From a virus, in IMG/VR virus record IMGVR_UViG_3300037264_003921, positions 32,001-96,000 of that record: DNA of 64,000 bases; one strand, 5' to 3'. Each line of letters starts with the position of its first letter. Position 1 is the first letter of the stretch. The notes beneath the pieces are model-generated. The model saw only the letters and a list, made by a program, of their open reading frames with translations, made no database searches and was not told where the DNA came from. A program made the translations under genes and the position numbers. Below are positions 42,585 through 58,409 of the stretch, in pieces.

Positions 42585-42601
42585 CTCAAATTATATAATA
42601 G

Positions 42602-43345
42602 ATGGCTATTTTAGGACCAGCACAACTGCCTGTTGTGCTGAAGACAGACAGTAATCCGCTTAAAATGCATGCCATTAGTCAATTGGGCCACCCGGTGGTC
42701 CTTGTTGAACTAATGGAACCGCAGATGGAACAAGTTTTAAGATCAACTGGTGATTGGATAGCTCAATATTTTCCATTAGAAGAACGTTACGCTTTTTTTA
42801 TGACACAGCCACTTCAAGCTGAATATCCATTACCTGATGGCGCATATTGGATTAGGAATGTTAAATGGGACCCAGCTACTACCCGCATTGACGACATCTT
42901 CGGTGCAGAATCATTCCTATTCAACATCGGAAATATCTCAGGTATCCAAAATATATTGACAGATTACCACCTTCTTCAAGCATATAGAAAGTTTAGCCAA
43001 AGAATTTTAGGTAATGAAGGCCAGTGGGAGTTTAAAGTTGAGTCGAATACAATTAGATTGTTCCCAGTTCCAAAGGGCTCTTTCCCAGTCGTTGTCGAAT
43101 ATCTTCCATCTGTTACCGAATTTAAATCGCCACAAGCACGTGAAATCACATATCGTGCATTTTTGGCTCGTATGAAAGAAGCACTCGGCCACGCTAGACG
43201 CAAATTTGGTGGCATCCCAGGCCCTGATGGATCAACCATCAACTTTGATGGGGAGGCTTTAGTAAACGAAGGGCGCGAAGAGTATGAGAAAGCTCAACAG
43301 GATGCCATCTTACTTGGTGAGCCCTTGGGTCCTTATGTTTGGTAA
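42602..43345 (+). CDS. Neck protein (gp13-like head-tail adaptor)
   Basis: QLGHPVVLVELMEPQM; LARMKEALGHARRKFGGIPGPDG..NFDGEAL. Confidence 0.78.
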   Translation: MAILGPAQLPVVLKTDSNPLKMHAISQLGHPVVLVELMEPQMEQVLRSTGDWIAQYFPLEERYAFFMTQPLQAEYPLPDGAYWIRNVKWDPATTRIDDIFGAESFLFNIGNISGIQNILTDYHLLQAYRKFSQRILGNEGQWEFKVESNTIRLFPVPKGSFPVVVEYLPSVTEFKSPQAREITYRAFLARMKEALGHARRKFGGIPGPDGSTINFDGEALVNEGREEYEKAQQDAILLGEPLGPYVW

Positions 43346-43366
43346 AATATTAAACTAATTTTAAGT

Positions 43367-43627
43367 TTAAATATTTAAAGTTTTAAATAATGAGCCATCA
43401 GCATTAAATAAAGAGACAGTGCCAAATAAATCATCTGGTTTTGCCAATTTCAAATCTTTCAACGTCGCTATAGCTAATACTCTCAATTCTCCAGAATCAG
43501 AAATAGGCACATCATATTCAGGCGCACCAATTTGATGCTTCTCAGTATGGTCGAATTCGAAAGTTTCAAATTCAGCCGTCGTTTTCTTACTAAAGTCGTT
43601 ATCCAGTTCTATTATTGCTAAATACAT
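43367..43627 (-). CDS. Hypothetical protein
   Basis: 86-aa ORF. Confidence 0.55.
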   Translation of the reverse strand: MYLAIIELDNDFSKKTTAEFETFEFDHTEKHQIGAPEYDVPISDSGELRVLAIATLKDLKLAKPDDLFGTVSLFNADGSLFKTLNI

Positions 43628-43831
43628 TTGATCATCATCACTAAGATTATTATTGATTAGACCGAAATGCTGACTAAGTCCACCAAACGACTACTCAACC
43701 CATAATGGGATTATTTTACCACCAATTGGAATCATACCTTCTTTTGTCTTAGCTTCGAAACTACGGCCAGCAACCCATTTATAAACTATCTTATTCAACT
43801 GCTCATATAAAACTGACAATTGCATGACGGT

Positions 43832-44119
43832 CTACTTTATTGATCTATTAAAGTCTTGTGAATTTAGTTTCAATACTGAGTCTAAATAAACTATTTCGCC
43901 ATTTGGTAGTTCAAATAGCATCTTATCAGCAGTATAATGATTGCCACCAACCGACACACCAGTTGGTGATACAACGACTTGGTCAATTTTTATCAGCTTC
44001 TTATCAGCCTTACCACGTCTATCACGTTCTTCTTGTGTATCTAATGGCTCTACATTACCCCAATCTGCAAAACTCTCATCAGCTTCCATTAACTCAGCAA
44101 TTTTATCAGTAATTGACAT
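43832..44119 (-). CDS. Hypothetical protein, possible late/internal protein
   Basis: MSITDKIAELMEADE start; CAAAAATA 4 nt upstream. Confidence 0.6.
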   Translation of the reverse strand: MSITDKIAELMEADESFADWGNVEPLDTQEERDRRGKADKKLIKIDQVVVSPTGVSVGGNHYTADKMLFELPNGEIVYLDSVLKLNSQDFNRSIK

Positions 44120-44122
44120 ATA

Positions 44123-44692
44123 TTATTTTTGAGACGCAAGCATTCCAAATAGCTGTTTCATCAATTCATCGCTGATTTTATAAATTGAACACAGAGCAAG
44201 AACTTGTTCTGGCTTATAGTTAATACCAATTCGATTATGATACTTCAACATCCTTCTAGCGGTTCTTTCTGGCCAGATTATGTTCTCAACATACAAATCA
44301 GACATACCAGATTCTAAGGCTTCTGCAGCTTGGCTGGTGATTTCATTATACCCACTATCATACAAATTACACATAACCACAGACATATCATGTAATTCAT
44401 GCGGTTTATCAAAATACCAACATATATCAAACCTATCATCGTCATACACTAGATTATATGCCTTAATATATGCATCGTCATTATTAAAATAAAAATCTAA
44501 ATCTTTAGTTTTATAGCCTAAATGATATGCTAGTGCAGCGCCTCCACTAATAATGCCACCATAATCAAATAATTGACGAATTGTCGATGTTAATTGTAAC
44601 TCATGCTTGATTAATGGTCGTTTGGTAAGTGACACCAATCTGTTTACACGATTAGACGTAGCTAGCCTAAGATCTTTGCTGACAGAATTCAT
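44123..44692 (-). CDS. Nucleotidyltransferase-fold protein
   Basis: ISGGAA...KDLDFYF (GG plus DxD); later HD and ERTARRMLKY, as in PolyA/CCA-like phage NTases. Confidence 0.65.
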   Translation of the reverse strand: MNSVSKDLRLATSNRVNRLVSLTKRPLIKHELQLTSTIRQLFDYGGIISGGAALAYHLGYKTKDLDFYFNNDDAYIKAYNLVYDDDRFDICWYFDKPHELHDMSVVMCNLYDSGYNEITSQAAEALESGMSDLYVENIIWPERTARRMLKYHNRIGINYKPEQVLALCSIYKISDELMKQLFGMLASQK

Positions 44693-44985
44693 CTATTCGT
44701 GTGGACCATGTGGCCGACCATATGGATCTGGCGGCACAGGTGGTACATCGCTCGCACGTATTTTAGCACGTTGGGCGAGATGTGGAGGTCCCCATACGCT
44801 ATACATCTATGTTCAATCGCCTTAGCAATTAAATTACCGTCAAGCCCGAAGATTCTCCCCACATTTTCAACTTCCTTGACTGCATCAGTCAGTGGTTTAT
44901 TGTAATCCCATTCACTACCAATTAATGCTTGTGATGATAATTGTGATGGTGTTGTTATTGATCTAGGTGGTGACTGATCTTCATT

Positions 44986-45408
44986 TCGGCAGCAGGCACA
45001 CGAGTGCGAAGATCATTTGTCCTCCTTATGGATATATTCGGTGAGAGCTTCTTCGAGTAGTCCCATTCGCTTGCTTAAGGCTGTTGCAAGCTCTACGTCC
45101 GTGGGAAAGGGAGGCGCACGGTGGATGAATGTAGCAAGCGCAGTCCCTAGTGAGTGAGTACCGTACAATGCGAGGTACTTGTCAAGCAGTGCCATGGTTC
45201 GTTTCCTCCTTTGCCGCAGCGAGCGAGGTGGCGGGCAGGTGCCACAGTACCACGTCGCGTATTGTTGCGTTCATATAGGTATGACGACGAGCAACGGAAT
45301 CTGTTTCATCGAAAATTCGGTGAGAAGTGGCAGGTGGTAGGCGTTACTGTCAGGTAACGGCGGCCGGTCGAGGAGCTGGGAGAGGGTCGTCCCTACATGA
45401 TGCGGGAG
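44986..45408. other. GC-rich foreign insert A
   Basis: Line 45181-45240 is 38/60 G+C against AT-rich flanks. Sharp junctions; contains AAGGAGG-led ORFs. Confidence 0.7.
45013..45195 (-). CDS. 60-aa protein carried on insert A
   Basis: AAAGGAGG-aaacgaacc-ATG. Stop overlaps another AAGGAGG-led ATG. Confidence 0.6.
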   Translation of the reverse strand: MALLDKYLALYGTHSLGTALATFIHRAPPFPTDVELATALSKRMGLLEEALTEYIHKEDK

Positions 45409-45457
45409 CATAATTTTAGCAAGATTTTCAATAAAATCGTCCATTTAGTTATCCTAA

Positions 45458-45994
45458 CTATTGTGGGAAACCCATAAATCCTTTTAGATTTGGCAACTGT
45501 CCATATTTAACACCATTATAGCTGATATAGAATATGTCGATCCCAGGAGATGCAGTCTCTAGTGCTACTTTCAAATCAGCAACGTCATTTTGATTTTTAG
45601 TAGTAGGCAAATCCCCCCATCCCTGTGTTCCCTGCACTGGCGTCATAACAGACGTTTTCTCAGCATCCGTTGAACCACTATGTATGATTTTCGCAGTTGG
45701 TACAACTGGTGGGCGTGTAGAATCAGAGCTAGCCACAAATCCAACAATAGTCAGACGTGCGGGTGCTTGCCCAACTTGTGGTACGAACAATACGGGTGCT
45801 GCAACATTAAATCCAGCATCGATCAAATCATCTTCAACTTTTTGTGCTTTCTTCTCTAAATCTCTATGGTACTCGGCTTTGCGGCCGAACGCTCTTGATG
45901 GAACAACTTTTGCATATGCTACGAATGGTTCATATTTAGTGCCTTGAGGCCCACTAAGAGCTGGCATTCTTGTAGATGTAGAATAAAGTGTCAT
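45458..45994 (-). CDS. Hypothetical protein, probably late/virion
   Basis: 178 aa; CAAATATA 4 nt upstream. Confidence 0.65.
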   Translation of the reverse strand: MTLYSTSTRMPALSGPQGTKYEPFVAYAKVVPSRAFGRKAEYHRDLEKKAQKVEDDLIDAGFNVAAPVLFVPQVGQAPARLTIVGFVASSDSTRPPVVPTAKIIHSGSTDAEKTSVMTPVQGTQGWGDLPTTKNQNDVADLKVALETASPGIDIFYISYNGVKYGQLPNLKGFMGFPQ

Positions 45995-46073
45995 ATATTA
46001 TATTTGATGATACTATCAAAATTATGATAGACGAAATTTCCGCCCATTCCTATATTGTGCCAGTCCGCACAAA

Positions 46074-46331
46074 TTAACACACACACGATAGCGCTGATAT
46101 CGATGACGACGAAATGGATATGGGATTTGTCCGAGCCACTTCTAAAATATGCTTATGTAGATCTTGGCTTGAACGACCTCGCCCTAATGAATCGTAACAA
46201 ACGCGACAAGCCAATTCACTCAACTGCTCATATTGAGTGCCGATCATTTGACCATCAGATGGCTTATCCATTTCTTCAGGAATTAAAACTTCGCCGCCAT
46301 CATACACCAATTTAGCAATAATATGTTCCAC
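46074..46331 (-). pseudogene. thyX: N-terminal fragment of flavin-dependent thymidylate synthase
   Basis: LSELACRVCYDS...HKHILEV matches the ThyX N-terminus. The sequence breaks just before the expected GHxSxxEH, and there is no RHR motif. Confidence 0.65.
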
Positions 46332-46396
46332 AATTGCTAAAATACATGTTTAGATATAGTTTGGGCCAGCAATTTCTGCTGGCCCATCCCATTCAG

Positions 46397-46783
46397 TTAT
46401 ACTGATCTCAACTCGTCGTGTAGATCATCAGTGAGAGACCCAACCTTCTTGAGTAAGAAGATGTCCCTGCCGATACGCTTCGGCATCGCCAAATCGGCGA
46501 TACCAACAACTGCCTGCGCAGCTGTCACTACATCACGTAATTCACGAACTATTGGTAACCCAACTCTGTTATTGTCAACAGATGTCGTTACGATGTCATC
46601 CGATGCATCACGGGTTTCCGTAACCAGATCCTCATGACCTGGAACCGACATGACTGCTCCACGCATGCCAGGGAATCCCAGCAATGGAAGAATCGCCTCA
46701 TGACGTAGATCCTGACGATACGCACGTACGGTGTATTCCACCGAAATCAGTGTGTTCGCTGGTTGACTTGCCATTAATATCAC
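46397..46783 (-). CDS. Hypothetical protein, probably highly expressed; likely start MASQP at 46774
   Basis: AGGAGGTGA RBS; 10-bp-stem hairpin at 46362-46386 downstream. Confidence 0.65.
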   Translation of the reverse strand: MILMASQPANTLISVEYTVRAYRQDLRHEAILPLLGFPGMRGAVMSVPGHEDLVTETRDASDDIVTTSVDNNRVGLPIVRELRDVVTAAQAVVGIADLAMPKRIGRDIFLLKKVGSLTDDLHDELRSV

Positions 46784-46853
46784 CTCCTAAACGGCTAAGA
46801 GCCACAATGGCTCTGTCCTACTGTAAATTTGACTAAATATTATTAAAATACCG

Positions 46854-47243
46854 TTAAGGTTTAGATGCGCGTTCTCTTATATGAACAGTTTCAATAGATT
46901 TAATATTGTGTACCGTCATACCATCACCAATTAAGGAATCACATTCTATAATAATGGCGATCTCAGGATGCTTTAAAGATTCAAACAATTTCTTAGCATC
47001 ATCAAATAACTCTATGTCAGCAATTATTTCATCATTAAATAATCTTATATCATTCACTTTATGTGTAATGATTCCATCAACTGAATTAAAAGTCATTCTA
47101 TCAAAGATGCCACCAAATACCTGCCCACCACTCAATCTACGCCTAAGATCCTCATCCTTTAATGCAGATTCAATCGTTGCTTTCGGATATAAATTACCAC
47201 GGCTTGTTGGAAAGTCTACATATATTCCAGAGCCAATTATCAT
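46854..47243 (-). CDS. Degenerate prohead-protease (gp21)-like protein
   Basis: SRGNLYPKATIE...VFG...ITHKV....DEIIADIELFD parallels gp21 NGRIYP..GELDH..VSH..G..EILD. No SSRG catalytic motif. Confidence 0.45.
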   Translation of the reverse strand: MIIGSGIYVDFPTSRGNLYPKATIESALKDEDLRRRLSGGQVFGGIFDRMTFNSVDGIITHKVNDIRLFNDEIIADIELFDDAKKLFESLKHPEIAIIIECDSLIGDGMTVHNIKSIETVHIRERASKP

Positions 47244-47277
47244 CTAATCTCTCGTATTATATTCGTCTATGGCAATA

Positions 47278-48426
47278 TTAGTCAACAAATATATAGTCAT
47301 TATGATTTGGACCTGTCCCAATCATTACAACTGGTATACCTGCGGTCTCTTCCATCTTATCAATAAATTTTCTAACCTTAATTGGCAGTTTATTAAACTG
47401 CGTTCTGCCGCCATGCATCTGATACGCAGACCAGTCAATATATTGTGGAAAATTTAATATCTGTTTAGTAGCCCCGCAGAATGAAGCGGATTCTTTAAGC
47501 AATTGCCATGAGAATGTAAACACACGTCTAATCTTCTTAGTAACTGTGGTACGTTCTTTTTCTGCCAACACTGATATCTCTGATTCAGGCATACCAGCTT
47601 CCCTGCCAATCTGATCCCATGTTAATTCATGTTGATCAGACATACAATCACCAGAGTATCCAGTTTGTTTCCCATCTCTATAATTATTACCAACACGAAT
47701 AGGGAATGTTCTGACGTTTAGATACACGTCACCAACCATATTTGGTAATATGCCAAGATCAGAATATGCTTGTTGTGGTGTGCAGTCTCTGAACGTACAA
47801 TATGGATAGTGTGTGCCATGATTGACAGATAAAGCAAATCCTTGTGATACTTCATGCATAATTGAGTGCCCATCGCTTAACGTTCTGCGCACAGTATCAA
47901 CAAATTGCATAGGCGTCAAAGTACTCATAACGTCGCTAGCTAACGTTGTCTCCGGTCTGCGCATTGATTTCTCTGAAAATGCAGCTCCTGAGCCAGACAT
48001 TGTTGAAGAAACTCTTTCTGTTGATTGAGATCCATTAGGAGATTCAATATCAATATGCCGCTGGCTCATAATAACAGCGCGTTGATGGATTTTGACAAGT
48101 TTATCATTTATTTTATAGCCAGTTTGTTCAAGTTCCTTATTAAATTGTTCAATCATAAATCCAGATCCTGGACCAACAAATAAATTCAAATTGCTAAATC
48201 TGTCTGCTTTAGTCTTATGAAGAATCGCTGAAGTTGGAACTACTTTTGCAACAAATTTGACATTACCATCTAATCCATCAATGATGGCAGTATGTCCAGC
48301 ATTTGCATAATTACATGTTGAAACATTATTAATATTATATATATCAACAAGCCGCGTTGATGCAGCTCCTTTTGCAGAGCTACCCCAGGCTGAGTCAACA
48401 ATACAATTAAGTTTACCCTTTTGCAT
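47278..48426 (-). CDS. purZ: Adenylosuccinate-synthetase-family enzyme with PurZ signatures
   Basis: WGSSAKG (Ser where PurA has catalytic Asp), NAGHT, QGFALS..YPYCT.RD, RTFPIRVG, DQHELTW, TTVTKKIRRVFTFS, LNFPQY, GTGP. Confidence 0.78.
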   Translation of the reverse strand: MQKGKLNCIVDSAWGSSAKGAASTRLVDIYNINNVSTCNYANAGHTAIIDGLDGNVKFVAKVVPTSAILHKTKADRFSNLNLFVGPGSGFMIEQFNKELEQTGYKINDKLVKIHQRAVIMSQRHIDIESPNGSQSTERVSSTMSGSGAAFSEKSMRRPETTLASDVMSTLTPMQFVDTVRRTLSDGHSIMHEVSQGFALSVNHGTHYPYCTFRDCTPQQAYSDLGILPNMVGDVYLNVRTFPIRVGNNYRDGKQTGYSGDCMSDQHELTWDQIGREAGMPESEISVLAEKERTTVTKKIRRVFTFSWQLLKESASFCGATKQILNFPQYIDWSAYQMHGGRTQFNKLPIKVRKFIDKMEETAGIPVVMIGTGPNHNDYIFVD

Positions 48427-48512
48427 AATCCCTCCTGCCTACTGTATGAAATGCTTTACCATATTTAGCGAGTGTTTCATTAATATCTACATTCACTCAT
48501 TGTGTACAGTAA

Positions 48513-48857
48513 TTATAACTTGGATGCATGATCAATTGACATACGGAATGGCCAACACCTCCAACAGCGTGTGCATCGAACGGCCTTCCTGCCGTCGCGG
48601 GTAAACCGGTGTGAACAGGGGCTTGATCCGTCCGGGATGATATAGCCCTTGGCGTCCAAATGCACTGGCCATAACTCTTCGACCCATTCCTTCGCCTTAC
48701 AACCCATCCATTGGCATTCACGACGATAGCCGCCGCCGACAAATTCCTCGATGGCATACCACTGACTCCATGCATGGTGAATAGTGCCATTGGTGCATCG
48801 CTTAAGACGCTTTTTCTTGTTCACCTTACGCATGCCCATGAGATATTCTCTTATCAC
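48513..48857 (-). CDS. Cys/His-rich protein lying mostly on GC-rich insert C (about 48541-48840)
   Basis: Two C..H..RxCxx(x)C-like units. Line 48541-48600 is 37/60 G+C. Confidence 0.5.
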   Translation of the reverse strand: MIREYLMGMRKVNKKKRLKRCTNGTIHHAWSQWYAIEEFVGGGYRRECQWMGCKAKEWVEELWPVHLDAKGYIIPDGSSPCSHRFTRDGRKAVRCTRCWRCWPFRMSIDHASKL

Positions 48858-48860
48858 AAT

Positions 48861-49604
48861 TCATAGACATTTAATGTATTTGGCCTGCCAGCCATTTTTA
48901 GACGTCGCCAAAGCAACATATTTGTCAACTAATGATTCTGGAACGTTATCCTTAATCCATTTTCTCTCGATCCATTTGAATCCAGCTTTTTTCAAAAACT
49001 CTTTTTGCAAATTAAAATCGGCATCGTCAAAATTAGGCTTGCCACTAAACCAGGCTTCAACCTTACAACGTGGCTCATTCATAATCTTCATAGCATGTTC
49101 TAAATTGTGCTTCGCCGCTAACTCACAACATGTTAATGCATCCCATAATGCTCTATGTCTCCTACCTGAATCTACGCCATAATCAACAGCAAGGTGTTGT
49201 AGTCTTGTTGAATTAACATTACCAACAATCTTTTCATGTGGTAAATCATTTTTAGTGCATATCCATGGCAACGATAAAAACTCTGGCCACCTCTTTGTTA
49301 TTAATCCTTTATCATAATCTTTATTATGTGCAACAATAACCACTGGTTTATAATGCTCTACTAATTTCCATGGATTAAATTCACAACTATAACCATTATT
49401 AGATACGTCACGTTTAATTTTGTGTATAACTTCCGCTTCATTTGACCATTTTGTTGTTTTAAGAATATCAGAATGCATTGCTACAACCTGACTGTGGGTC
49501 GTATCATATACGACCATGCCGATCTCTACTATTTCATCAACATCAATGTTGAGACCAGTGCTCTCTACGTCAACAGATAAAATAATCATTAACCACAAAG
49601 CCAA
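48861..49604 (-). CDS. DEDDh 3'-5' exonuclease (DnaQ-like)
   Basis: DVESTGL, EIVEIG, VAHNKDYD, WICT, HRALWDA. Confidence 0.88.
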   Translation of the reverse strand: MALWLMIILSVDVESTGLNIDVDEIVEIGMVVYDTTHSQVVAMHSDILKTTKWSNEAEVIHKIKRDVSNNGYSCEFNPWKLVEHYKPVVIVAHNKDYDKGLITKRWPEFLSLPWICTKNDLPHEKIVGNVNSTRLQHLAVDYGVDSGRRHRALWDALTCCELAAKHNLEHAMKIMNEPRCKVEAWFSGKPNFDDADFNLQKEFLKKAGFKWIERKWIKDNVPESLVDKYVALATSKNGWQAKYIKCL

Positions 49605-49614
49605 TTATATCGTT

Positions 49615-50046
49615 TTAATTCCATGGAATTTTCTCCACCCAATGTTGTGGGACCCATAATAATGACCCATCATTAAACTCGACACGATAATGCTTGTGGT
49701 CTCGTTTAGTTACTCTAGCTGGTTCCATATATTTTACATGTTCTTTATTAATTACTATAATCCATGTACCCTCATTGAGTTCTGGGATTTGTGTTTTAAA
49801 AACTGGTATTCTATTGACTATCGCCAATTCACTATTTGACAGTCTGGCCCAAAACAAATTTGTGCATTTTATGCATATGATCGGTACATAGCCAACCTTC
49901 TCCCATGAAGAAGATACAGCTTTATTTTGCACATTACAAAATGGACAATTGAAATCGTCTGTTATAGACTCATTTGACATCTGGACCCAACGTGTCGACG
50001 GCTTTTTCTTTGGCTGGCTCTTGCGTTTTTTGCGTTTCTTGCTCAT
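49615..50046 (-). CDS. Zn-ribbon protein with SH3-like C-terminus
   Basis: CPFC..CIKC; basic N-terminus; YRVEFNDG..LWVP. Confidence 0.55.
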   Translation of the reverse strand: MSKKRKKRKSQPKKKPSTRWVQMSNESITDDFNCPFCNVQNKAVSSSWEKVGYVPIICIKCTNLFWARLSNSELAIVNRIPVFKTQIPELNEGTWIIVINKEHVKYMEPARVTKRDHKHYRVEFNDGSLLWVPQHWVEKIPWN

Positions 50047-50689
50047 TATAAAACCTAATTATATTACTAGCTTGGTTTAGATTAACATCAAATCGCATAT
50101 TTCTATCAGATTTAAATGCTTCAATTGTCTCATATGTCACATTACATGATATCTTTATCGGAGTAACGATCTTATTACGAACAACAGCAATCGCTTTCTT
50201 ATGATCCTCCAATCCAACGCCATTCTTCAATGTATATGGATCTAATCTAACCCAATTACATGGATATTTCACAATGGCATCAATATGCTGTTCAGATATA
50301 CCACGGCCATAAGACCCAACTATCCATCTAATTTCAGCAACTGGGTTCACAGATTTTAAAAATTCAGAAATTAATCTAACTTCATTGTCAATCTCTTTCC
50401 CAGTATGGCCATTTGAATACATTATATCGAATCCATCCGCAGCCAACGCATCCTCAGAAAGATCACGCAATTTTTGCATTGCAAAATTCTTGCCATCAGG
50501 ATAGTCAATAACAGCAATAATTTTATACTTACCACGTTTTGAAACCCTATCAGCGATAAATGGGGCAACTAAGCTAGGCACAGTAACTATTGCAGGGCAA
50601 CTGTGTTTAAATACAAATGCGCCAACACGTACTGGATTTACCATTTTATCTAAAGCATTTAATTCTAATCGTGTAGTAATTTGCAACAT
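49970..50689 (-). CDS. DeoC (deoxyribose-phosphate aldolase)-like TIM barrel, divergent
   Basis: AIVTVP, AVIDYPDG (cf. TVIGFPLG), ADGFDIM (cf. ADEIDMV), IKIS (cf. VKAS). Confidence 0.55.
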   Translation of the reverse strand: MLQITTRLELNALDKMVNPVRVGAFVFKHSCPAIVTVPSLVAPFIADRVSKRGKYKIIAVIDYPDGKNFAMQKLRDLSEDALAADGFDIMYSNGHTGKEIDNEVRLISEFLKSVNPVAEIRWIVGSYGRGISEQHIDAIVKYPCNWVRLDPYTLKNGVGLEDHKKAIAVVRNKIVTPIKISCNVTYETIEAFKSDRNMRFDVNLNQASNIIRFYNEQETQKTQEPAKEKAVDTLGPDVK

Positions 50690-51264
50690 TTCTTTTCCTT
50701 TTCATTTGTAAAACCATCATAACATACTGAAAACCATTTCAATGGGTCCATCTTAATACTGCCATTATCCAATTTATCAACATGCCCAATTAATTGATCC
50801 CATGTTCTGAAAAACACATGATCCATATCTTGTGGCGTTGAAAACCTCTGTAATACCCATGTTGATGCAATCCCATCTGGCATACAAAATAAGACTGGTT
50901 TATCTATATCAGCTGCTAGATATATCTCTTCGAACGTGCCTGCGGTATACTTAATTGGCATCCAACATATAATCCAATCAGCAGACGACACCATTTTCAA
51001 ACAAACTTGACGTAATTCTTTATTTGCATCGAATACATCATTTATTGTTATCCCAACAGGCTCACCATTTAGACTTTTACGATATAATTTTGGGTCTACT
51101 TTTGAAATATCAGACAACCAACTAGGTTTAACTAATGGATCATATACTTTGACATTATATTTTAATAAACTACTAGTTATTTGGGTACGCCAATCTTTTG
51201 CATGGTCATCATGTTCAACTGGACCTGCTAAATATACTCGCGTGCCACCCAATAAATTCCCCAT
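50665..51264 (-). CDS. Nucleoside 2-deoxyribosyltransferase / dNMP N-glycosidase family protein
   Basis: VYLAGP, WR, VYDP, MVSSADWII, GTFEEIYLA, KPV. Confidence 0.78.
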   Translation of the reverse strand: MGNLLGGTRVYLAGPVEHDDHAKDWRTQITSSLLKYNVKVYDPLVKPSWLSDISKVDPKLYRKSLNGEPVGITINDVFDANKELRQVCLKMVSSADWIICWMPIKYTAGTFEEIYLAADIDKPVLFCMPDGIASTWVLQRFSTPQDMDHVFFRTWDQLIGHVDKLDNGSIKMDPLKWFSVCYDGFTNEKEKKCCKLLHD

Positions 51265-51293
51265 ACAGCTATTTACGCAGTATAGATACTTAG

Positions 51294-51464
51294 TTATGGC
51301 ATTTCGTTCTTAGTACTTTCTCCAGGTTTATTCTTCTTTTTAAATCCCTGACCAAGCATAAACTTTGGGTACTTTACTTTCTGTTCGTGATGTTGAGTGC
51401 CGCCGCCATGTGCCCCTTTGCTACTGTGCTTTGATTTACCAAAATTCACCTTTTTTTCTGCCAT
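51294..51464 (-). CDS. 56-aa basic Lys/Gly/His-rich protein (below ORF-track cutoff)
   Basis: GAGGT-aatt-ATG; MAEKKVNFGKSKHSSKGAHGGG...; fills the intergenic gap. Confidence 0.6.
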   Translation of the reverse strand: MAEKKVNFGKSKHSSKGAHGGGTQHHEQKVKYPKFMLGQGFKKKNKPGESTKNEMP

Positions 51465-51472
51465 AATTACCT

Positions 51473-52444
51473 CTATTCTATAGTTTTTAATTCATTCAAT
51501 ATTATATCTACAGCTGTCTTCTGATCAAGTTTGCCAAAATACTCAGCAAACTTATATTTATTATATGATGAACAAAAAAATATCTTCTGTCGTTCTTCAG
51601 GTGTCAGTACATTTACAGCTGACATATAACTTTCTGCCTCACTATCAAATCGTTTTAGACGTACATCATTAGCTACATCTGGGTTTTGTCCATAAAAATG
51701 TAACTTACCACTCACAGAACACATATCGACACCAAAGATGTAAATTTTATCATATTGCATCCAAACAGCTGTTTGAATATTTGCATATGTTGATGATCTA
51801 CCAACATGATACCCTCTTACTAGATCTCTAGAAAACCCCTTTCCAGATAAACTCTTTATCAAAACTTGGTTCTTATGTGGTGCTCGCACAGATGACGCAT
51901 TTAATGTAGTACCATTATATTTTTCCCATATTTGTTTATTCCTTGTATATTGACTCTGATCGCAAAATGCCCAATAGCGTGATGGCCATATTCTGCTATC
52001 TGGTCTATTAATACACATTATGTCTATTTTCTTGTTATCTTTCAACTTTTCCAATGGCGCTTCAAGAACAGATGGTCCACATGCTACAATCACTAATATT
52101 CTACCACGCCCAATGCCACGCAATCCTTCAATCGCTGCTCTAAATTGCGCTACTCTATTTGAATTGAGCCTATTTACACTACTGCTTATTAGACGTGGTT
52201 TATGTTCTCTTATTGGGAAGTTTACTCTAACATCTCTCTTTTGCTTAGGCTGCTGTTTGATTATTGGTTTCGCAGCTTTAACCAACACTACCTGTGGCAC
52301 TCTTGGTTGTATAATTTTTTGTTCAATATTTTGAGTCCTATTCGGTTTATTAACTTTAATGTGGACTCTCTGAATTGGTAGTTTATTCAATGATCTATAA
52401 TTATGTGCCACAAAATATCTTTGGCATAAATTACAACCAACCAA
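51473..52444 (-). CDS. DUF115/Maf-like (GT42-related) glycosyltransferase-fold protein
   Basis: IVACGPSV, IMCIN, YWAFCD, SSTY..IQTAVWMQYDKIYIFGVDM, HFYG. Confidence 0.7.
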   Translation of the reverse strand: MVGCNLCQRYFVAHNYRSLNKLPIQRVHIKVNKPNRTQNIEQKIIQPRVPQVVLVKAAKPIIKQQPKQKRDVRVNFPIREHKPRLISSSVNRLNSNRVAQFRAAIEGLRGIGRGRILVIVACGPSVLEAPLEKLKDNKKIDIMCINRPDSRIWPSRYWAFCDQSQYTRNKQIWEKYNGTTLNASSVRAPHKNQVLIKSLSGKGFSRDLVRGYHVGRSSTYANIQTAVWMQYDKIYIFGVDMCSVSGKLHFYGQNPDVANDVRLKRFDSEAESYMSAVNVLTPEERQKIFFCSSYNKYKFAEYFGKLDQKTAVDIILNELKTIE

Positions 52445-52479
52445 TCACCGTAAGTTGTATAAAATAATAGTATTAATAA

Positions 52480-52869
52480 TTAATTTTCATTAACCTCTAC
52501 AGTATGGTCGCCAACAAGCCTCTTCTTAAGATTAGCTAAAACAACTTTTCTACGTGATTCTTTATTCATTTTAGAATATAAATGTCTAAATACCGTAGTA
52601 GTCAAAAGATTAAAAACTGGGGCACGACCAGGAGTAAATTTCAACCTCCCATCACTTATTTTGGCAATTGTAAGAACAAATGCCTCATGGGCAAACTCGT
52701 GGTGTTCATCCTCATCGTGTGGATGAAAATGTATAGCAACACCATAGCATATTTTATATATGCCATCAAGCAAATGTTTCCAAGATTCTTCATTATGGTT
52801 ATCAAGCCATTTTGTCCAATGCTCTTCAAGCAATTTAGAGTCTACATAGTACTTTTTAATACTTGCCAT
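52480..52869 (-). CDS. Short gp55-like sigma (region 2 only)
   Basis: KYYVDS start; KFTPGRAPVFNLLTTTVFRHLYSKMNKE parallels the 9375-10136 protein. Confidence 0.55.
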   Translation of the reverse strand: MASIKKYYVDSKLLEEHWTKWLDNHNEESWKHLLDGIYKICYGVAIHFHPHDEDEHHEFAHEAFVLTIAKISDGRLKFTPGRAPVFNLLTTTVFRHLYSKMNKESRRKVVLANLKKRLVGDHTVEVNEN

Positions 52870-52926
52870 ATCGTTGCTCCTGTGATATTGTAGGCATCTA
52901 ACTCAAATACATTTATTGGAGGAAAC

Positions 52927-54054
52927 ATGGGCGGACAACTTGCACGGTTATTCTTACGTGGATCATTGATGAGTGATACAGCAAAATTGCTAACAAAGAG
53001 TGAAATCTCAATGGTTGAATCCTTAATGAAGGAAGCATGGGACGATCCAGCCCTCCAAAGCCAAAAAATGGAGTTCTGCCTCGCATTAGGTAGAACCATA
53101 GGTAATGAATATAAAGACATAGAAGCTGGCAAAGCCGATGCATTAATCACATTTTGGAAAGCAGCATTACTCGTGCTGTTTCATGAATCGAAACAATGCA
53201 AGAATCAATCATGCAAAAAACATCACATCACCACACACATAAAAATAGATAAATGCATTGACTGTGGTAGCGATCTTATAATTAAATGGTCTCCAAAACC
53301 TCAAATTGCAGAAGATCCAATAAAGCGGAAAAAGTTTTTCCAAGCCGTTATGTTTAACTATCTTCGTCAAATTTTTAGGGAGAATAAACCACCTTCTATG
53401 AAAAACATACAAACAGAAGACGGAGCAGCAACTGATGTTGCAACAAAAGTTATTACATCAATTATTGACAAACTTAAAAATGTCCAATACACAACAGAAA
53501 ACACTGACGATGACCACCACATAATTCATTGTGAAACATCACTAATACCACTTAAAACAATAAAACAAATCGCTGATATAAAATCCGAATTTGAGCAACA
53601 TGGAGTACAAATAACTGTTGACTGGGCTACAATCGATATTGTGTCGGCTCTTGAGGTTCCACCTATAATAAGTTATGCGATTATTAATAAAGTATATACT
53701 AAATTTACAAGCCTAGATAATAGTGCATCAAACGACTCAGACTATAATTTCAAAGACATATACGAGCATAAAGCAATTTCAATAGCCGATGAAAAAACAC
53801 AACAGGACGAGTCAGACCTCAATGAGTCATTAAGGGTAGTTCGTAGTAGATTGTCAGATGCAGCACAAAAATTATTTGATGTTATCGTAGACACACCAGA
53901 TGATTATATCAATAAGTTCAAAACAAGCAAATTACATAAATCGCATTTAGCAGCATATTTTGGAGTAGACCAGAAAGAAATAGACTCCCTAAAAGAAAGT
54001 ATCAAACTTCATTGTCTTGCTGTAGATATTGGAACAAATGACGATCATGTATGA
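52927..54054 (+). CDS. Sigma-factor-like protein with Zn-ribbon insertion
   Basis: Region-2-like FFQAVMFNYLRQIFRE, region-3-like TSLD, region-4-like RLSDAAQKLF..HLAAYFGVDQKEI; CKNQSC..CIDC insert. Confidence 0.5.
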   Translation: MGGQLARLFLRGSLMSDTAKLLTKSEISMVESLMKEAWDDPALQSQKMEFCLALGRTIGNEYKDIEAGKADALITFWKAALLVLFHESKQCKNQSCKKHHITTHIKIDKCIDCGSDLIIKWSPKPQIAEDPIKRKKFFQAVMFNYLRQIFRENKPPSMKNIQTEDGAATDVATKVITSIIDKLKNVQYTTENTDDDHHIIHCETSLIPLKTIKQIADIKSEFEQHGVQITVDWATIDIVSALEVPPIISYAIINKVYTKFTSLDNSASNDSDYNFKDIYEHKAISIADEKTQQDESDLNESLRVVRSRLSDAAQKLFDVIVDTPDDYINKFKTSKLHKSHLAAYFGVDQKEIDSLKESIKLHCLAVDIGTNDDHV

Positions 54055-54104
54055 TATAAACAATCAGAAAGACGAGCATAAGCTATGCAGGTAACAGATG
54101 TTTA

Positions 54105-54143
54105 CATTTCACGCTTGATGTGAGCTAATATTACGGTCTTGGC
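54105..54143 (+). repeat. Exact 39-bp direct copy of 9735-9773 (inside the gp55-like sigma gene)
   Basis: catttcacgcttgatgtgagctaatattacggtcttggc occurs identically at both places, 44,370 bp apart. Confidence 0.95.
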
Positions 54144-54182
54144 ATATGAAGCAGTCGGTGATACGATGAAGAAGGTGAAGCG

Positions 54183-54287
54183 ATGGGAAATATGAAGCGG
54201 TGCGAGTGTGGCCGATGGATGCGGATTGTGCATGAGCTGGGCCAATCCTATTGGAAGTGCATCTGCGGAAAAGTGGAGTCGCTTTAG
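54183..54287 (+). CDS. 34-aa Zn-ribbon microprotein
   Basis: AAGGTGAA RBS; MGNMKRCECGRWMRIVHELGQSYWKCICGKVESL. Confidence 0.55.
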   Translation: MGNMKRCECGRWMRIVHELGQSYWKCICGKVESL

Positions 54288-54367
54288 GTTTGAAAGGTGA
54301 ACAGGATGAACGACACAGCGAAGCACACGGGTATAAGGTGAGGCCTCTTTGATTCGTCGGAGGAAAG

Positions 54368-54475
54368 ATGGAAGATAACCTGAAAAAGTGTTGCCCGGAG
54401 TGCGGGGGATTCATGATGTTCAACGTGAACTGGTATTGGATTTGCCCCATCGACGGGACGCGACTACAGGCTTGA
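54368..54475 (+). CDS. 35-aa CPxCG Zn-finger microprotein
   Basis: GGAGG RBS; MEDNLKKCCPECGGFMMFNVNWYWICPIDGTRLQA. Confidence 0.6.
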   Translation: MEDNLKKCCPECGGFMMFNVNWYWICPIDGTRLQA

Positions 54476-54619
54476 TTCGAAAGGTGAACAGGATGGACGA
54501 CGAAAAGCGCGATGCGATGCAATGGAAGGCGCAGATGCGCCCGATCACCTGTGCCGGAATCACGACGGATCTGGACGGGGCGAATGTCAGCCCTACGTGG
54601 AAAGACAACGCCTTAAGAG

Positions 54620-55147
54620 TTAATAATTAACCTTACTACGTTCATAATATCCACCAGAGATACTAGGCCCAATTCTTCCACTACGTGGAGAAATTGGCAT
54701 GGACACCTGTGACGTTGGTTGGATTACACCGCTCTTATTTGCAGCCATCACTTTCGTAACAAATTCTATGATCTCTGATGGCGATTTTTGCATTGTTGCA
54801 ACACTAGACGGTGTTGGACCATATATAGATCTTTGGAATTCAGACATATTATTATGCGACGAATCACCAAGTGACATTCTGTGTGTTCCAAGAACGAACA
54901 TATTCCATCCAACAACAACCTGACCAGTAGCAGGATTTAAATCCTTAACATATGGCACAATTTCAACTTTACTAACTAATTCTGGGACACGAACAGCAAC
55001 ATCCTGCAACATTGGTGCATATATTGGCCGATTAAAATTGTCAAATCCTTTATCTTCAACAAAATACCTAGTTAAAGACCTCTTTATTAGTTCTGTATTT
55101 AATGCACGCCTAATATTTTCTACAAGATCTCTATCATTTGACAGCAT
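54620..55147 (-). CDS. Hypothetical protein
   Basis: 175 aa, follows the gp46-like gene. Confidence 0.65.
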   Translation of the reverse strand: MLSNDRDLVENIRRALNTELIKRSLTRYFVEDKGFDNFNRPIYAPMLQDVAVRVPELVSKVEIVPYVKDLNPATGQVVVGWNMFVLGTHRMSLGDSSHNNMSEFQRSIYGPTPSSVATMQKSPSEIIEFVTKVMAANKSGVIQPTSQVSMPISPRSGRIGPSISGGYYERSKVNY

Positions 55148-55160
55148 ATAATATATTTTA

Positions 55161-57302
55161 TTAACTTACTATTCGTGAAAAGCCATCGATATCTTGCAAT
55201 ACTGTTATCTGATTTGAGAATTGATCCGCCATTTCAGCTTTATGACTTATAACCAATATAGTATCGGGCTTATCAGGACGATCACCAGAGAAATCATTAT
55301 GAATGACATCAACAAATGCCCTAACTCCATGCTGATCAAGACTACCATCTATTTCATCTAAAACCATCACATTACACTGCTGGCCATACATCGAGATATA
55401 TAAATCATATATTGCAAACATTATGGCAAGATCTATCCGTTTTTGCTGCCCACCGGAATGAAAGTCATAATCCCATTTTGATGTCTCTATAGATAATGTT
55501 GATGTAAATCTCAACTGTAAGTCGCATTCAAAAGCATTAAGATAATATTCTATTCGCTGATTGAGATATCCGACTAATTCCGATATTACAAACATTTTAA
55601 TTTTATTTCTATCATGATAACTACGTCTAATATATTCATATTGTTTTATTAAATTGTCGAATTTTGTAATATTTAATAATGTATCACTTAATTTATTTTG
55701 TGAATCATTCAAATCACATAGAAATGTTGACTTAATGTCTAAATATGGATTCTGCCTACTACTTTCTTCGGCAATACGCTCATCTAGGTCTGTAATTGAT
55801 TTGTGAATTTCAGAATATCGTAAGTGCACCCGCTCGGCATTCATTAATCCAATTTCAACATCATCTAGTTTTATCTCTTCACTTAGCTCATGTACTAAAT
55901 CTAAAATCCGTGAATTAACATCAATAAGTTTAGTCTTATAATCTAATTTTTGTGATATTTTATCATCTATGTCGGCAATTTCTAATTTAATGCTATTCTT
56001 ATCATTAAGTGTTCTAATCGCTTCATCGACAGTCATTGATGGCCTATTAATGATTATATCCTTTATCATAGCCATAATAGATGCAATTGCTTTGTTGATT
56101 TTTTCCAACTTAGAACACAATTCTGGCAGTTTGTCAACATATGGTTTACATAAGTCAGTTGTGTGTTCATTTGTAATAAGCTGTTGGCACGATGGGCATT
56201 TTGTCCCATTCTTGTTATTCCATTCAAATATCGTTTCATTTGTTGATGTAATGTCTTGTTTGATCTTACGTTGTTCTAACACAAAAATAGACAATTTGCT
56301 GTTCAGGTCATTGTAGAGATTAACTAATCTGTCAGCATTTTTATGTGATTCAACTAATTCATTAACGTCTACAACTTTGATTGTATCGAATTTAGTCTTA
56401 TAATTTACTAAAGATCTCTTTAGTCTTTCTATATCTATATTAAGTTGTGTTAATGCGGTGTCAGCCTTTAATAACTTGATCTTATTGTCTGATAATTTTG
56501 TTATTTTTTGTTTATATATTAAATAGTTAGATTTTATCAGTTCTAAATCTGGCAACACAATCGTCAATGCTTCATCATTGAGCTTCTTTATCTGTGCTTT
56601 AAAATGTATGGTCTTATTAGATCTTTCTTGTTCAAATCCTTCAATCTTTTGCTCAGCATGTGATGCTTGATCTGTGAGTCTTTTAATGTCATTTTTAAAT
56701 ATATCAGCAACAGCACACAATTTCTGCTGCTCTATTTCTATAGCTGTCCGTTTTTCTTTAGCTATATCACCCCACACGTTAAGTCTATTAAGACCAAGCA
56801 TCCTTTCAAGGGCTGATTTTCTTTTGACATCGCTCATATCTAAAAACGATTGTGTACGTTGCCCAAAGAACATACTTGATGTAAATATTTCGTAATCAAG
56901 ATTGAATAATTTATTCAATAATTGTTGTGCATTTTTATTCGTCGATAATGTTATATCCTTACCATCTTTATTAATTAATAGATCATCATGTCCGTTTAGA
57001 TTCCTGGTGCGGGTTATTGTCCATCCATCAGTTGTTGTTATTCGAACATAACATTCTTTTTTAGTCGTAAAATTTATTACTTTATCGCCTGGTGATGATT
57101 TTCTCGGCGTTCTTCCAAAGAGACACCATATTATAGCAATGGTTATCCCTGATTTACCTGTACCATTAGACTCATCAGGCCGACCATCTTTACTTCCAAT
57201 AATCAATACAGGCCCTAAAGATAATAAATCTAATGATGACTCATAGTCGCCATAACTTAAAAAGTTAGACCATTCTAGTTTATTTATGCGTAATATGGCC
57301 AT
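55161..57302 (-). CDS. Rad50/SbcC-like ATPase (T4 gp46-like)
   Basis: NFLSYG, SNGTGKS, coiled coil with CPSC hook, SGGQ, VLDEIDGSLD, VISH. Confidence 0.93.
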   Translation of the reverse strand: MAILRINKLEWSNFLSYGDYESSLDLLSLGPVLIIGSKDGRPDESNGTGKSGITIAIIWCLFGRTPRKSSPGDKVINFTTKKECYVRITTTDGWTITRTRNLNGHDDLLINKDGKDITLSTNKNAQQLLNKLFNLDYEIFTSSMFFGQRTQSFLDMSDVKRKSALERMLGLNRLNVWGDIAKEKRTAIEIEQQKLCAVADIFKNDIKRLTDQASHAEQKIEGFEQERSNKTIHFKAQIKKLNDEALTIVLPDLELIKSNYLIYKQKITKLSDNKIKLLKADTALTQLNIDIERLKRSLVNYKTKFDTIKVVDVNELVESHKNADRLVNLYNDLNSKLSIFVLEQRKIKQDITSTNETIFEWNNKNGTKCPSCQQLITNEHTTDLCKPYVDKLPELCSKLEKINKAIASIMAMIKDIIINRPSMTVDEAIRTLNDKNSIKLEIADIDDKISQKLDYKTKLIDVNSRILDLVHELSEEIKLDDVEIGLMNAERVHLRYSEIHKSITDLDERIAEESSRQNPYLDIKSTFLCDLNDSQNKLSDTLLNITKFDNLIKQYEYIRRSYHDRNKIKMFVISELVGYLNQRIEYYLNAFECDLQLRFTSTLSIETSKWDYDFHSGGQQKRIDLAIMFAIYDLYISMYGQQCNVMVLDEIDGSLDQHGVRAFVDVIHNDFSGDRPDKPDTILVISHKAEMADQFSNQITVLQDIDGFSRIVS

Positions 57303-57314
57303 ATTTTAATGCTA

Positions 57315-58409
57315 CTACGACATCTCACCGTCTTGCTCTTCAGTAGATGCTATACGTTCAATACCGTCTTCTACTATTTGTTTATTCAGATTTAATACTT
57401 CATTCGTATCAATATTTTCTGGCATATCATGTTTTATCCATTGTTCAAATAACACAGATCCATCCCCAAGATTTGATTTTGTCACATTTGATATGCTAGT
57501 ATCTTCTTCTTGTTTGGTCTTCATCCATTTTACTACTTTGGCACCATTCGACAATATTTTATTGCGTAATTCAGTCAATTCATTACTAGTATAATCTCTA
57601 GATAAACATACTCTAATATGATTATCGCGTACATTAATCTTCTCTACATCAGAGTCAACACACGTAATATAATCAGGAGCATGCTCCTGATTAGGTAATA
57701 ATAGTTTACCTACATCAAATGTTTTAATAAACTTGTGGTCCATTGTCTCAGTATCAAATTCAATGAACCCATGGTCAACTAACCCTTCATCAAATCTGAA
57801 TGGTATTGGACTTCCAGTGTACCATGTTTTATCACCAACTTTTTGATGGCAATGAAAATGCCCAGAATATATCCTATGAAATTTAGTCTGTGAAAAATCA
57901 ACAACACTCCAATGTTTTAATAAAAAACATTCATTAAGCGATGCTCCAGCTACTCCAATATGCGTCAATAACACATCTTTATCAGTTGCCTTTGACTCTA
58001 TCGCCTTCACAACTTCCATATATGCAGATTCATAATGAACAAATGGCAATATCCAAAATTTAACACCACCATATTGAAGAGCTTTCACATCCTCTATTAT
58101 TGTTACAACTCTACTAAGTGGTCTAACAGAATTAACTTCCCATGAGTTCTTAAGATACATATCATGGTTGCCAGGAAAGACTGCCCATTCTTGATTATAA
58201 TTTTTTTCAGTGTCATCAAAAAAGTCATATGCAGTTGTCAACACCTGAATATTCAGGCTAGTCCTATCATGAAACAAATCACCAAGGACTATGACAACAC
58301 CAATATCATTTTTAGATGCATATTCTCTTATGACTTTAGATGCCCACAACGAATGTTCTAATTTATTCGGGACACCAAAATGAATATCAGATGTAAGAAT
58401 TAAACGCAT
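57315..58409 (-). CDS. Mre11/SbcD-like nuclease (T4 gp47-like)
   Basis: SDIHFG, LGDLFH, GNHD, GHFH, YTGSP. Confidence 0.93.
   Translation of the reverse strand: MRLILTSDIHFGVPNKLEHSLWASKVIREYASKNDIGVVIVLGDLFHDRTSLNIQVLTTAYDFFDDTEKNYNQEWAVFPGNHDMYLKNSWEVNSVRPLSRVVTIIEDVKALQYGGVKFWILPFVHYESAYMEVVKAIESKATDKDVLLTHIGVAGASLNECFLLKHWSVVDFSQTKFHRIYSGHFHCHQKVGDKTWYTGSPIPFRFDEGLVDHGFIEFDTETMDHKFIKTFDVGKLLLPNQEHAPDYITCVDSDVEKINVRDNHIRVCLSRDYTSNELTELRNKILSNGAKVVKWMKTKQEEDTSISNVTKSNLGDGSVLFEQWIKHDMPENIDTNEVLNLNKQIVEDGIERIASTEEQDGEMS

Follow-up and report, generated by a model that had tools for sequence, protein, structure and literature searches.

A hypervariable stretch between collinear core genes

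The 64,000 bp of viral DNA analyzed here (the window) correspond to bases 32001-96000 of a single 125,263-bp contig with a G+C content of 37.8%, and the features under study are short GC-rich patches, designated A, C, and D, that lie at gene boundaries between positions 44986 and 54619 of the window. Matches to PHROG families for terminase, portal, tail sheath, baseplate, ribonucleotide reductase, helicase, SbcC/SbcD (gp46/47-like), and a PurZ-like enzyme mark the virus as a myovirus. No cultured phage close to positions 43000-56000 was found by megablast among 50,697 phage records, and SbcC shares ~24% identity with its best matches among cultured phages. Four syntenic relatives (G001-G004, together 645,943 bp) were present in IMG/VR: G001-G003 are fragments whose SbcC is 50-54% identical to that of the window, and G004 (SbcC, 38% identity) is a complete genome of 370,804 bp with direct terminal repeats. 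Since G004 is complete at this length, we take the 125-kb contig to be a fragment of an uncultured myovirus with a jumbo-phage-type genome.

Eighteen core genes, spanning positions 39347 to 58409, are collinear in G001-G003 and largely collinear in G004. The gaps between these genes measure <170 bp in G001-G003 except at four sites, which are variable in every genome; the same four intergenic sites are filled with different cargo across the five genomes, and the relatives' fills are unrelated to those of the window and have a G+C content at or below that of their own genomes. Site A, between a conserved 247-aa gene (42602-43345, + strand; 86-88% identity in G001-G003) and a conserved 178-aa gene (45458-45994, - strand; 42-57% identity in all four relatives), measures 2112 bp in the window and 98 bp in G001, with other cargo in the three other relatives (870, 1523, and 1803 bp). 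Site B, between the 178-aa gene and a 128-aa gene, measures 402 bp in the window and 207-2605 bp in the relatives. Site C separates a PurZ-like adenylosuccinate-synthetase homologue (47278-48426, - strand; phrog_1211, E 3.1e-50; 68% identity in G003) from an exonuclease-like gene (48861-49604, - strand; phrog_192, E 1.3e-22; 54-57% identity in G001-G003). It was compared in all three relatives that retain this junction, and its 434 bp in the window (G+C 0.475) correspond to 36, 40, and 91 bp in G001-G003. Site D is a tail-to-tail junction between a 375-aa gene (+ strand, ending at 54054) and a 175-aa gene (- strand, ending at 54620) and measures 565 bp in the window (G+C 0.503); in G002, it is 8 bp long and the two stop codons overlap, and in G003, G004, and G001 it holds 214, 347, and 1466 bp of unrelated cargo that is not GC-rich.

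The G+C content of each interval was ranked against all same-length windows of the 125,263-bp genome. A preliminary description of this DNA had listed four GC-rich patches, three of which are clear outliers: patch A (44986-45408; G+C 0.551, z 3.9, 0.11% of windows as high), patch C (48541-48840; G+C 0.540, z 3.4, 0.39% of windows as high), and patch D (54144-54619; G+C 0.525, z 3.5, 0.22% of windows as high). The fourth, interval B (46025-46135), did not hold up, with a G+C content of 0.45, a z of 1.15, and 13% of windows as high. A flanking line that had been put at 37% G+C (53941-54000) indeed measured 0.367 (z -0.15; 58% of windows as high). A 150-nt scan located two more GC-rich stretches in the interval that had not been listed earlier, at 44639-44864 and 46358-46818. 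G+C at third codon positions (GC3) ranges from 0.51 to 0.69 in the open reading frames (ORFs) of the patches versus 0.23-0.30 in nine neighboring core genes. Genome-wide, 20 of the 23 ORFs with a GC3 of at least 0.42 have no homologue in the relatives, and 10 of these 23 lie in the first 6.1 kb among nine tRNA genes and are probably not genes. The window contains no tRNA gene and, at the gathering threshold, no Rfam family, and RNA genes thus do not explain the GC-rich patches.

A comparison of 11 ORFs (eight in or beside the patches and three AT-rich neighbors) with the four relatives (645,943 bp) gave no match at E <= 0.01 and two at E 0.075-0.096. A DNA search of the sites against the four relatives returned a single 19-nt match, which is of chance size, and no second copy of any patch was found in the genome. 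As judged from composition and synteny, A, C, and D are therefore real, foreign, and lineage-specific DNA, as had been proposed: they are absent from all four syntenic relatives, and their GC3 is alien to that of the core genes.

Interval B is contained in a lineage-specific 85-aa ORF (46074-46331, - strand; G+C 0.42, GC3 0.34) that has no homologue in the four relatives. The GC-rich 128-aa gene next to it (46397-46783, - strand) has homologues of 46-59% identity in all four relatives, and their G+C content exceeds that of their own genomes (0.575 versus 0.44, 0.478 versus 0.368, 0.518 versus 0.408, and 0.52 versus 0.454). Since it is conserved and elevated in G+C in all four relatives, the 128-aa gene is vertically inherited and is no foreign patch; its GC3 is only 0.44-0.45. 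Vertical conservation in all relatives, which the preliminary description had named as telling against capture, is not seen for A, C, and D. Directly 3' of the 128-aa gene, positions 46363-46385 form a perfect 9-bp hairpin (GGGCCAGCA / TGCTGGCCC), which may be a terminator without a T-run.

Gene content and edges of the patches

Site A is a mosaic in which AT-rich lineage-specific ORFs (43367-44692) are followed by a GC-rich stretch (44689-44862), an AT-rich spacer, and then patch A, an arrangement that suggests several separate events. The GC-rich stretch is a 57-codon ORF with a GTG start (- strand; G+C 0.506, GC3 0.64) whose frame is open upstream to 45009 without a start codon and whose stop overlaps the start of an AT-rich 189-aa ORF (44123-44692). 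It has no homologue in the four relatives, nor among longer proteins in a word-based protein search.

Patch A itself reads as a fragment of a tightly packed small-gene operon on the local coding strand, with AAGGAGG at 45205-45211 and 45021-45027 (- strand). Its only complete gene candidate, A1 (45013-45195, - strand), encodes 60 aa, has AAGGAGG 9 nt upstream of its ATG and a GC3 of 0.51, and returned only itself among 5.8 billion proteins, with no homologue in IMG/VR or the four relatives. At the left edge of the patch, an 11-codon ORF (44981-45016, - strand) with an AAGGAGG ribosome-binding site overlaps the preceding ORF by ATGA and, in a three-frame translation, ends exactly where the GC-rich DNA ends. 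At the right edge, the 57-aa ORF A2 (45271-45444, - strand) switches composition in frame: in 30-nt steps its G+C content runs 0.27, 0.37, 0.53, 0.63, 0.70, and the part beyond the first 30 nt is given as 53-70%, so that its first ~12 codons look native (AT-rich) and the remainder looks like foreign GC-rich DNA. A2 has no Pfam or PHROG match and no usable match in a Protein Atlas search. The tiny ORFs led by ribosome-binding sites and the cutting of ORFs at the patch edges, both noted at the outset, were thus seen again in A. We dropped a TGA read-through joining A2, A1, and the downstream frame, which share one frame with two TGA codons between them, because core genes end in TGA (for example, at 54052-54054) and because A1 has its own strong ribosome-binding site.

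Patch C differs in holding one complete Cys-rich gene (48513-48857, - strand; GC3 0.58), which encodes 108 aa from an ATG at 48839 or 114 aa from a GTG at 48857; the 108-aa version is also called in a public protein collection. On one side, the gene is bounded by the stop codon of the exonuclease gene (48861), and on the other by the AT-rich leader (86 bp) that precedes the PurZ-like gene. When 1.84 billion representatives were searched exhaustively with HMMER, five non-self matches were obtained at E <= 1e-3, four of which are small proteins with a common Cys/His/Trp motif. Residues C15, H22, W24, W27, Y38, R40, C42, G46, C47, L56, and P58 are invariant in this family (C..H.W..W...Y.R.C...GC...L.P). 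As judged from these matches, C is a complete gene of a rare small family found only in metagenomes, and its product is presumably a small Cys/His-rich, zinc-binding protein. Its predicted structure has a mean pLDDT of 59.9 from a four-sequence alignment and gave no Foldseek match to the PDB at E <= 0.001.

The closest homologue of C (P0002; 41% identity, E 5.6e-15) is encoded on a metagenome contig of 11 kb whose G+C content is uniformly 56-64% (59% overall) and which has dense, small, co-oriented ORFs, of which one of ten tested matched a PHROG; these properties fit a GC-rich phage or mobile element. The preliminary description had noted Cys-rich peptides in C and D, which the ORF translations bear out, and had likened them to the early region of another virus. 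For this likeness, the dense small co-oriented ORFs around the C homologue offer an indirect indication. The C protein had no match among the 50,697 phage records and none beyond itself in the word-based protein search, and a scan of IMG/VR with the C-family alignment gave no match.

Patch D as a whole (54055-54630, + strand) looks like a fragment of a tightly packed small-gene operon with cut edge ORFs, and its content comprises two predicted peptides of ~35 aa with Cys pairs and a predicted 45-aa peptide. The ribosome-binding sites that precede its ORFs read GAAGGTGAAG, GGAGGAAAG, and, in two copies, GAAAGGTGAACAGG. The ORF D1 (54183-54287, + strand; GC3 0.69) is 34 aa long, contains two Cys pairs (CxC ... 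CxC), and shows a weak match to DUF1922 (E 0.0019, below the family cut-off). It is followed by the first copy of a 26-nt repeat (54289-54314, + strand) that consists of a ribosome-binding site, an ATG, and two codons, and that starts an 11-codon ORF (54306-54341). D3 (54368-54475, + strand; GC3 0.69) is a 35-aa ORF with the pattern CCPEC ... C, and the second copy of the repeat (54476-54501; 24 of 26 nt identical) starts the 45-aa ORF D4 (54493-54630, + strand), whose last 11 nt coincide with the end of the 175-aa gene. The last codons of D4 extend into AT-rich native DNA (33% G+C in the last 30 nt), so that an ORF led by a ribosome-binding site and cut at the edge was observed in D as well. 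The 175-aa protein ends in ...YYERSKVNY in the window versus ...YYEKNRPV and ...YYEKSRPV in G002 and G003, with the last three residues differing. D1 and D3 were considered as paralogues and rejected, as BLASTP found no alignment between them and they have in common just the 26-nt element with the ribosome-binding site.

At its left edge, the GC-rich part of D carries a 39-nt exact direct copy (54105-54143, + strand) of positions 9735-9773. The source (- strand) is a run of 13 codons, in frame (AKTVILAHIKREM), from the best-conserved block of a 253-aa ORF (9375-10136), to which the copy is antisense. This ORF has a weak match to a sigma-factor family (phrog_351, E 0.0055) and may resemble sigma region 2. 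The copy, which came to light through a contig break at 54103/54114 in a second assembly, exceeds every other dispersed exact repeat of the 125-kb genome in length, and none of 100 shuffles produced such a match. Its ends are sharp, with no similarity beyond the 39 nt and no micro-homology visible. The encoded peptide is identical in G001 and differs at one of 13 residues in G002 and three of 13 in G004, and the DNA differs at 8, 8, and 12 of 39 positions in G001, G002, and G004, respectively; given this divergence, the copy in the window is therefore recent or maintained. No sign of RNA structure was seen around it (54055-54185; z -0.36), a scan of IMG/VR with the 39-mer gave no match, and the other patch edges showed only self-matches of 11-16 nt, which are of chance size.

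Filler DNA, or templated insertions, occurs at illegitimate-recombination and break-repair junctions. The 39-mer resembles such filler in being a short exact copy of a distant sequence of the same genome placed exactly at a junction of native and foreign DNA. Unlike filler, it shows no micro-homology at its ends, and it keeps the codon register and derives from the best-conserved part of its source gene, which a random template switch would not predict. The 39-mer is an oddity that may be a templated filler at a repair junction or may be an antisense regulator. The stronger proposals are that, rather than a passive scar, it is a trans-acting antisense element at the 5' edge of the patch-D transcription unit, by which the acquired cassette or the phage itself tunes a key transcription gene, or that it is the footprint of template-switching (copy-choice) synthesis. 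These we consider rather doubtful; a copy-choice footprint would show by what route foreign DNA becomes joined to the genome in this jumbo-phage lineage.

Origin of the patches

Evidence that the genome takes up short pieces of foreign DNA comes from a sister patch beyond the window, at 98412-98816 of the contig (L055 613-1017; 66412-66816 in window coordinates), where a gene for an IscA/HesB-type Fe-S carrier adjoins a peptide deformylase gene. The patch has a G+C content of 0.60 and a GC3 of 0.79, and its product has both hallmarks of A-type Fe-S carriers: a match to PF01521 (Fe-S_biosyn) above the cut-off (E 6.8e-16; 58.9 bits versus 26.3) and a C-terminal CGCG motif within its end, ...GNCGCGKSFST. 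It matches a contig (64% G+C) of a Planctomycetales metagenome-assembled genome (MAG) with 88.7% identity over 335 nt and 91.8% over 49 nt, and the similarity runs from ~10 nt before the ATG to the stop codon; an 81-nt His-rich linker is missing from the phage copy. Since this host-derived patch matches Planctomycetales, the genome takes up host-type DNA of such a size, trimmed to the gene. In this respect, the short-piece capture envisaged in the preliminary description is upheld, in that pick-up of ~0.2-0.6-kb pieces from the host or co-resident elements occurs. The patches amount to ordinary gene pick-up, with no special capture system.

For the patches of the window, donor searches against the phage records covered the region, A, and D as DNA (near and distant matches) and C as protein, D being searched as DNA only. 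When 44600-54700 was compared as DNA with 401 Planctomycetota genomes, three matches of 27-54 nt were obtained (per-genome E 4.5e-5 to 8.9e-4), which are weak because 401 genomes were tested. D had no DNA match in the Planctomycetales MAG itself, and the C protein had none in 20 genomes of the order of that MAG. The probable donors of A, C, and D are other phages or mobile elements from within the same GC-rich host community; in at least one sister case, the donor was the bacterial host lineage itself (Planctomycetales-like).

We consider it quite likely that A, C, D, and the stretch at 44689-44862 are recently acquired foreign DNA at permissive, recurrently used sites in a hypervariable stretch. 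In the mechanism that we infer, donors richer in G+C than the phage would supply pieces of ~0.2-0.6 kb, which would be joined into the replicating genome by illegitimate (non-homologous or micro-homologous) recombination at gene boundaries, where insertion would be harmless. Some of these pieces would later be pared down by selection and deletion to a single exact gene, as in C and the IscA-like gene, and others would remain raw fragments with edge-cut ORFs (A and D). The edge-cut ORFs argue for illegitimate joining of random fragments at tolerated positions, namely the tail-to-tail junction in the case of D and gene boundaries in the case of A and C. Break repair had been put forward as the route, with the nearby gp46/47 genes as a clue. 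This clue loses its force, as SbcC and SbcD adjoin site D in all five genomes whatever fills the site; break repair may have contributed, and the 39-nt copy on the left side of D would agree with this without proving it. By analogy with most small accessory phage genes, the predicted small products of the patches would likely serve in host takeover or inter-element conflict.

Because the contig is a metagenome assembly, host or other-phage reads could in principle have been stitched into it, and contigs of the second assembly, made from a sequencing run that holds the sequence and is probably its source, break at 54103/54114, next to the left junction of D. This break coincides exactly with the 39-nt repeat, whose length exceeds the 31-letter words of the Logan run index, and the unitig depth of the repeat (28.7) is about twice that of its flanks (14.7-15.6), which fits two real copies of the 39-mer. 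The left junction of D is crossed by two short unitigs with depths of 9 and 7.2, together about genome depth, and the sole alternative route in the assembly graph would disrupt synteny and divide the 253-aa ORF. A 22,093-nt contig spans 43000-54103 without differences, including both junctions of A and of C, and a 14,025-nt contig spans 54114-56000, including the right junction of D. The chimeric assembly that the preliminary description had raised as a way in which capture could be only apparent is thus not what the contigs show, and we regard it as extremely unlikely. No alternative joint corresponding to an empty-site allele was present at the A, C, and D junctions in the contigs of the run, although contigs drop rare variants. 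Short parts of the window, at 47348-47858 (in the PurZ-like gene), 51457, and 53664, are matched by contigs of this run at 90-99% identity before the sequences diverge, so the sample contains related phages side by side.

Other accounts accept the patches as real but explain them differently. A site-specific or homology-guided system could shuffle cassettes, either through PeSL-like promoter/stem-loop cassettes and mini-circles of the kind seen in T4-type phages or through co-conversion by the nearby HNH/Mom-type homing endonucleases. This account could draw on the four intergenic sites being reused with different cargo in five genomes, on the exact gene-boundary-to-gene-boundary insertion of C, on the HNH/Mom-domain genes nearby (35270-36817 and 41121-42584), on the inverted block adjoining site A, and on the finding that PeSLs mostly flank differential ORFans in T4-type phages (PMC2839356). 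However, no repeat family borders the patches, no 9-mer occurs in more than six of 78 intergenic segments and those that recur are simply AT-rich words resembling -10 boxes, scans for promoters and terminators give chance-level counts, no patch ORF has an endonuclease domain, and the cut edge ORFs of A and D are not expected from a cassette mechanism, all of which makes cassette shuffling unlikely. Even less probable is that the patches are ancestral genes lost in the four relatives, with a G+C content that reflects protein composition or selection. The 128-aa gene does show that a GC-elevated gene can be vertical here, and the relatives are distant, but the GC3 of 0.51-0.69 versus 0.23-0.30 places the difference at synonymous sites, the GC3 of the conserved 128-aa gene does not reach that of the patches, the edge ORFs change composition mid-frame, and independent losses would be needed at three sites in up to four genomes. 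The preliminary description had also floated a spacer-like memory, that is, a dedicated DNA-capture system recording pieces of competitors. Several short foreign pieces do lie within 10 kb, and, at 39 nt, the exact copy bordering D is about as long as a spacer. Yet no repeat units flank the patches, no leader, array structure, or Rfam family was found, no Cas-like or integrase-like gene adjoins them, the pieces are 0.2-0.6 kb long and contain translatable genes preceded by ribosome-binding sites, C is a member of a conserved protein family, and the 39-mer matches a gene of the phage itself rather than one of a competitor, so that this idea is exceedingly improbable. The search for mobile elements agreed with the earlier report that transposase, terminal inverted repeats, and target duplications are missing: none was found at the patch ends, the patch ORFs contain no Pfam or PHROG transposase or integrase, and with no inverted repeats, transposase, or extra copies the patches do not classify as a transposon, insertion sequence, or miniature inverted-repeat transposable element. 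Nor do they classify as a homing endonuclease or group I intron, as the patch ORFs have no HNH, GIY-YIG, or LAGLIDADG domain and no Rfam intron was found.

Several observations weigh against recent acquisition of foreign DNA as the explanation. No donor for A, C, or D was found in the 50,697 phage records, the 401 Planctomycetota genomes, IMG/VR, or protein collections. The relatives are distant, parsimony alone cannot tell insertion from four independent losses, and the junctions cannot be fixed to the nucleotide. The 65 ORFs unique to this genome have a median GC3 of 0.31 versus 0.28 in 111 conserved ORFs; since most lineage-specific ORFs are not GC-rich, GC-rich donors account for a minority of gene turnover. 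Promoter-like sites number 51 versus 48.9 expected and terminator-like sites 4 versus 7.5, and none brackets a patch, with the caveat that these scans used consensus sequences and the phage's own promoter types may differ. Finally, as the run is probably the source sample, the agreement of the contigs reflects a second assembly and not independent data.

The insertions, which relative to the four relatives are plainly visible, belong to a familiar type of feature, here in a new phage group, comparable with T4-type hyperplastic regions (HPRs), morons, and host-derived auxiliary genes. Morons are extra phage genes with their own promoter and terminator, and auxiliary metabolic genes are taken from the host. 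The patches resemble both in being extra genes of atypical composition between conserved genes, and the IscA-like patch is a host-type gene trimmed to its ribosome-binding site and ORF. Unlike classical morons, the patches have no assignable promoter or terminator (the consensus scans being at chance), and A and D are no tidy single-gene units. Studies of T4-type myoviruses describe HPRs that carry lineage-specific ORFans (PMC2839356; Comeau et al. 2014, PMC4122927) and, in the PeSL model, conserved ~100-bp cassettes of a promoter and a stem-loop that border differential ORFans (Arbiol et al. 2010, PMC2839356). The present stretch is like these HPRs in that core blocks are broken by short variable sites with intergenic insertions and with small ORFans that differ between relatives, in a myovirus with SbcC/SbcD (gp46/47-like) genes nearby. 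In contrast with HPRs, the inserts lack flanking PeSL-like promoter/stem-loop repeats, the phage is only distantly related to the T4 type (as the SbcC identity indicates), and three of the fills exceed the genome by 14 to 17 G+C points, two of them being raw fragments with cut ORFs.

The patches thus provide an example, dated by composition, of accessory-gene renewal in a large uncultured phage, with three fills still recognizably foreign, and they leave current knowledge of phage genome plasticity unchanged. Two points are worth keeping. One is the 39-nt self-copy, which together with the edge-cut fragments A and D constitutes junction evidence that is rarely preserved in phages and that, should closer relatives come to light, could constrain the recombination mechanism; the other is the link to Planctomycetales, a usable host clue for a jumbo-phage group without a cultured member.

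Neighboring and more distant features

The 247-aa gene that bounds site A and the HNH/Mom-domain gene upstream of it (41121-42584) are inverted as a block (41121-43345, + strand) relative to G001-G004. The 247-aa gene has a weak match to head-tail adaptors and is interrupted near residue 100-110 by 2.1 and 1.6 kb in loci L014 and L015, respectively, and HNH/Mom genes border it in loci L013 and L014; by this pattern, it looks like a homing-endonuclease target. A second HNH/Mom-domain paralogue lies at 35270-36817 (- strand).

The PurZ-like gene next to site C (47278-48426, - strand) is 32-36% identical to genes of phiVC8-type, ZP6, and other phages, and hints at 2-aminoadenine DNA in a jumbo-phage-type genome. 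Of the relatives, G003 carries its homologue (68% identity) at the same site, G001 and G002 have homologues of 28-31% identity, and the copy in G004 is located elsewhere; a PurZ scan of IMG/VR gave no match.

All ten tRNA genes are located within the first 15 kb of the genome and fall outside the window. At 14631-14704 of the contig (- strand), likewise outside the window, ARAGORN predicts a tRNA with the anticodon CTA (amber-reading, labeled Pyl); general TAG recoding of the phage is not indicated, and coding density under code 11 is 95%.

Further GC-rich stretches occur elsewhere in the genome. At 123392-123565 of the contig (L056 593-766), a lineage-specific 57-aa ORF with a G+C content of 0.61 has a match to HTH_38 (E 3.2e-5) below the family cut-off. 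Within the window, the stretch at 61937-62379 (maximum 0.573) lies in a 693-aa ORF (61757-63838), and another, at 2149-2439, lies in a 1442-aa ORF (1852-6180, - strand). The C-terminal part of the latter ORF is a portal protein, and its earlier parts match terminase, ribonucleotide-reductase, and endonuclease PHROGs, a pattern that would fit one or more inteins.

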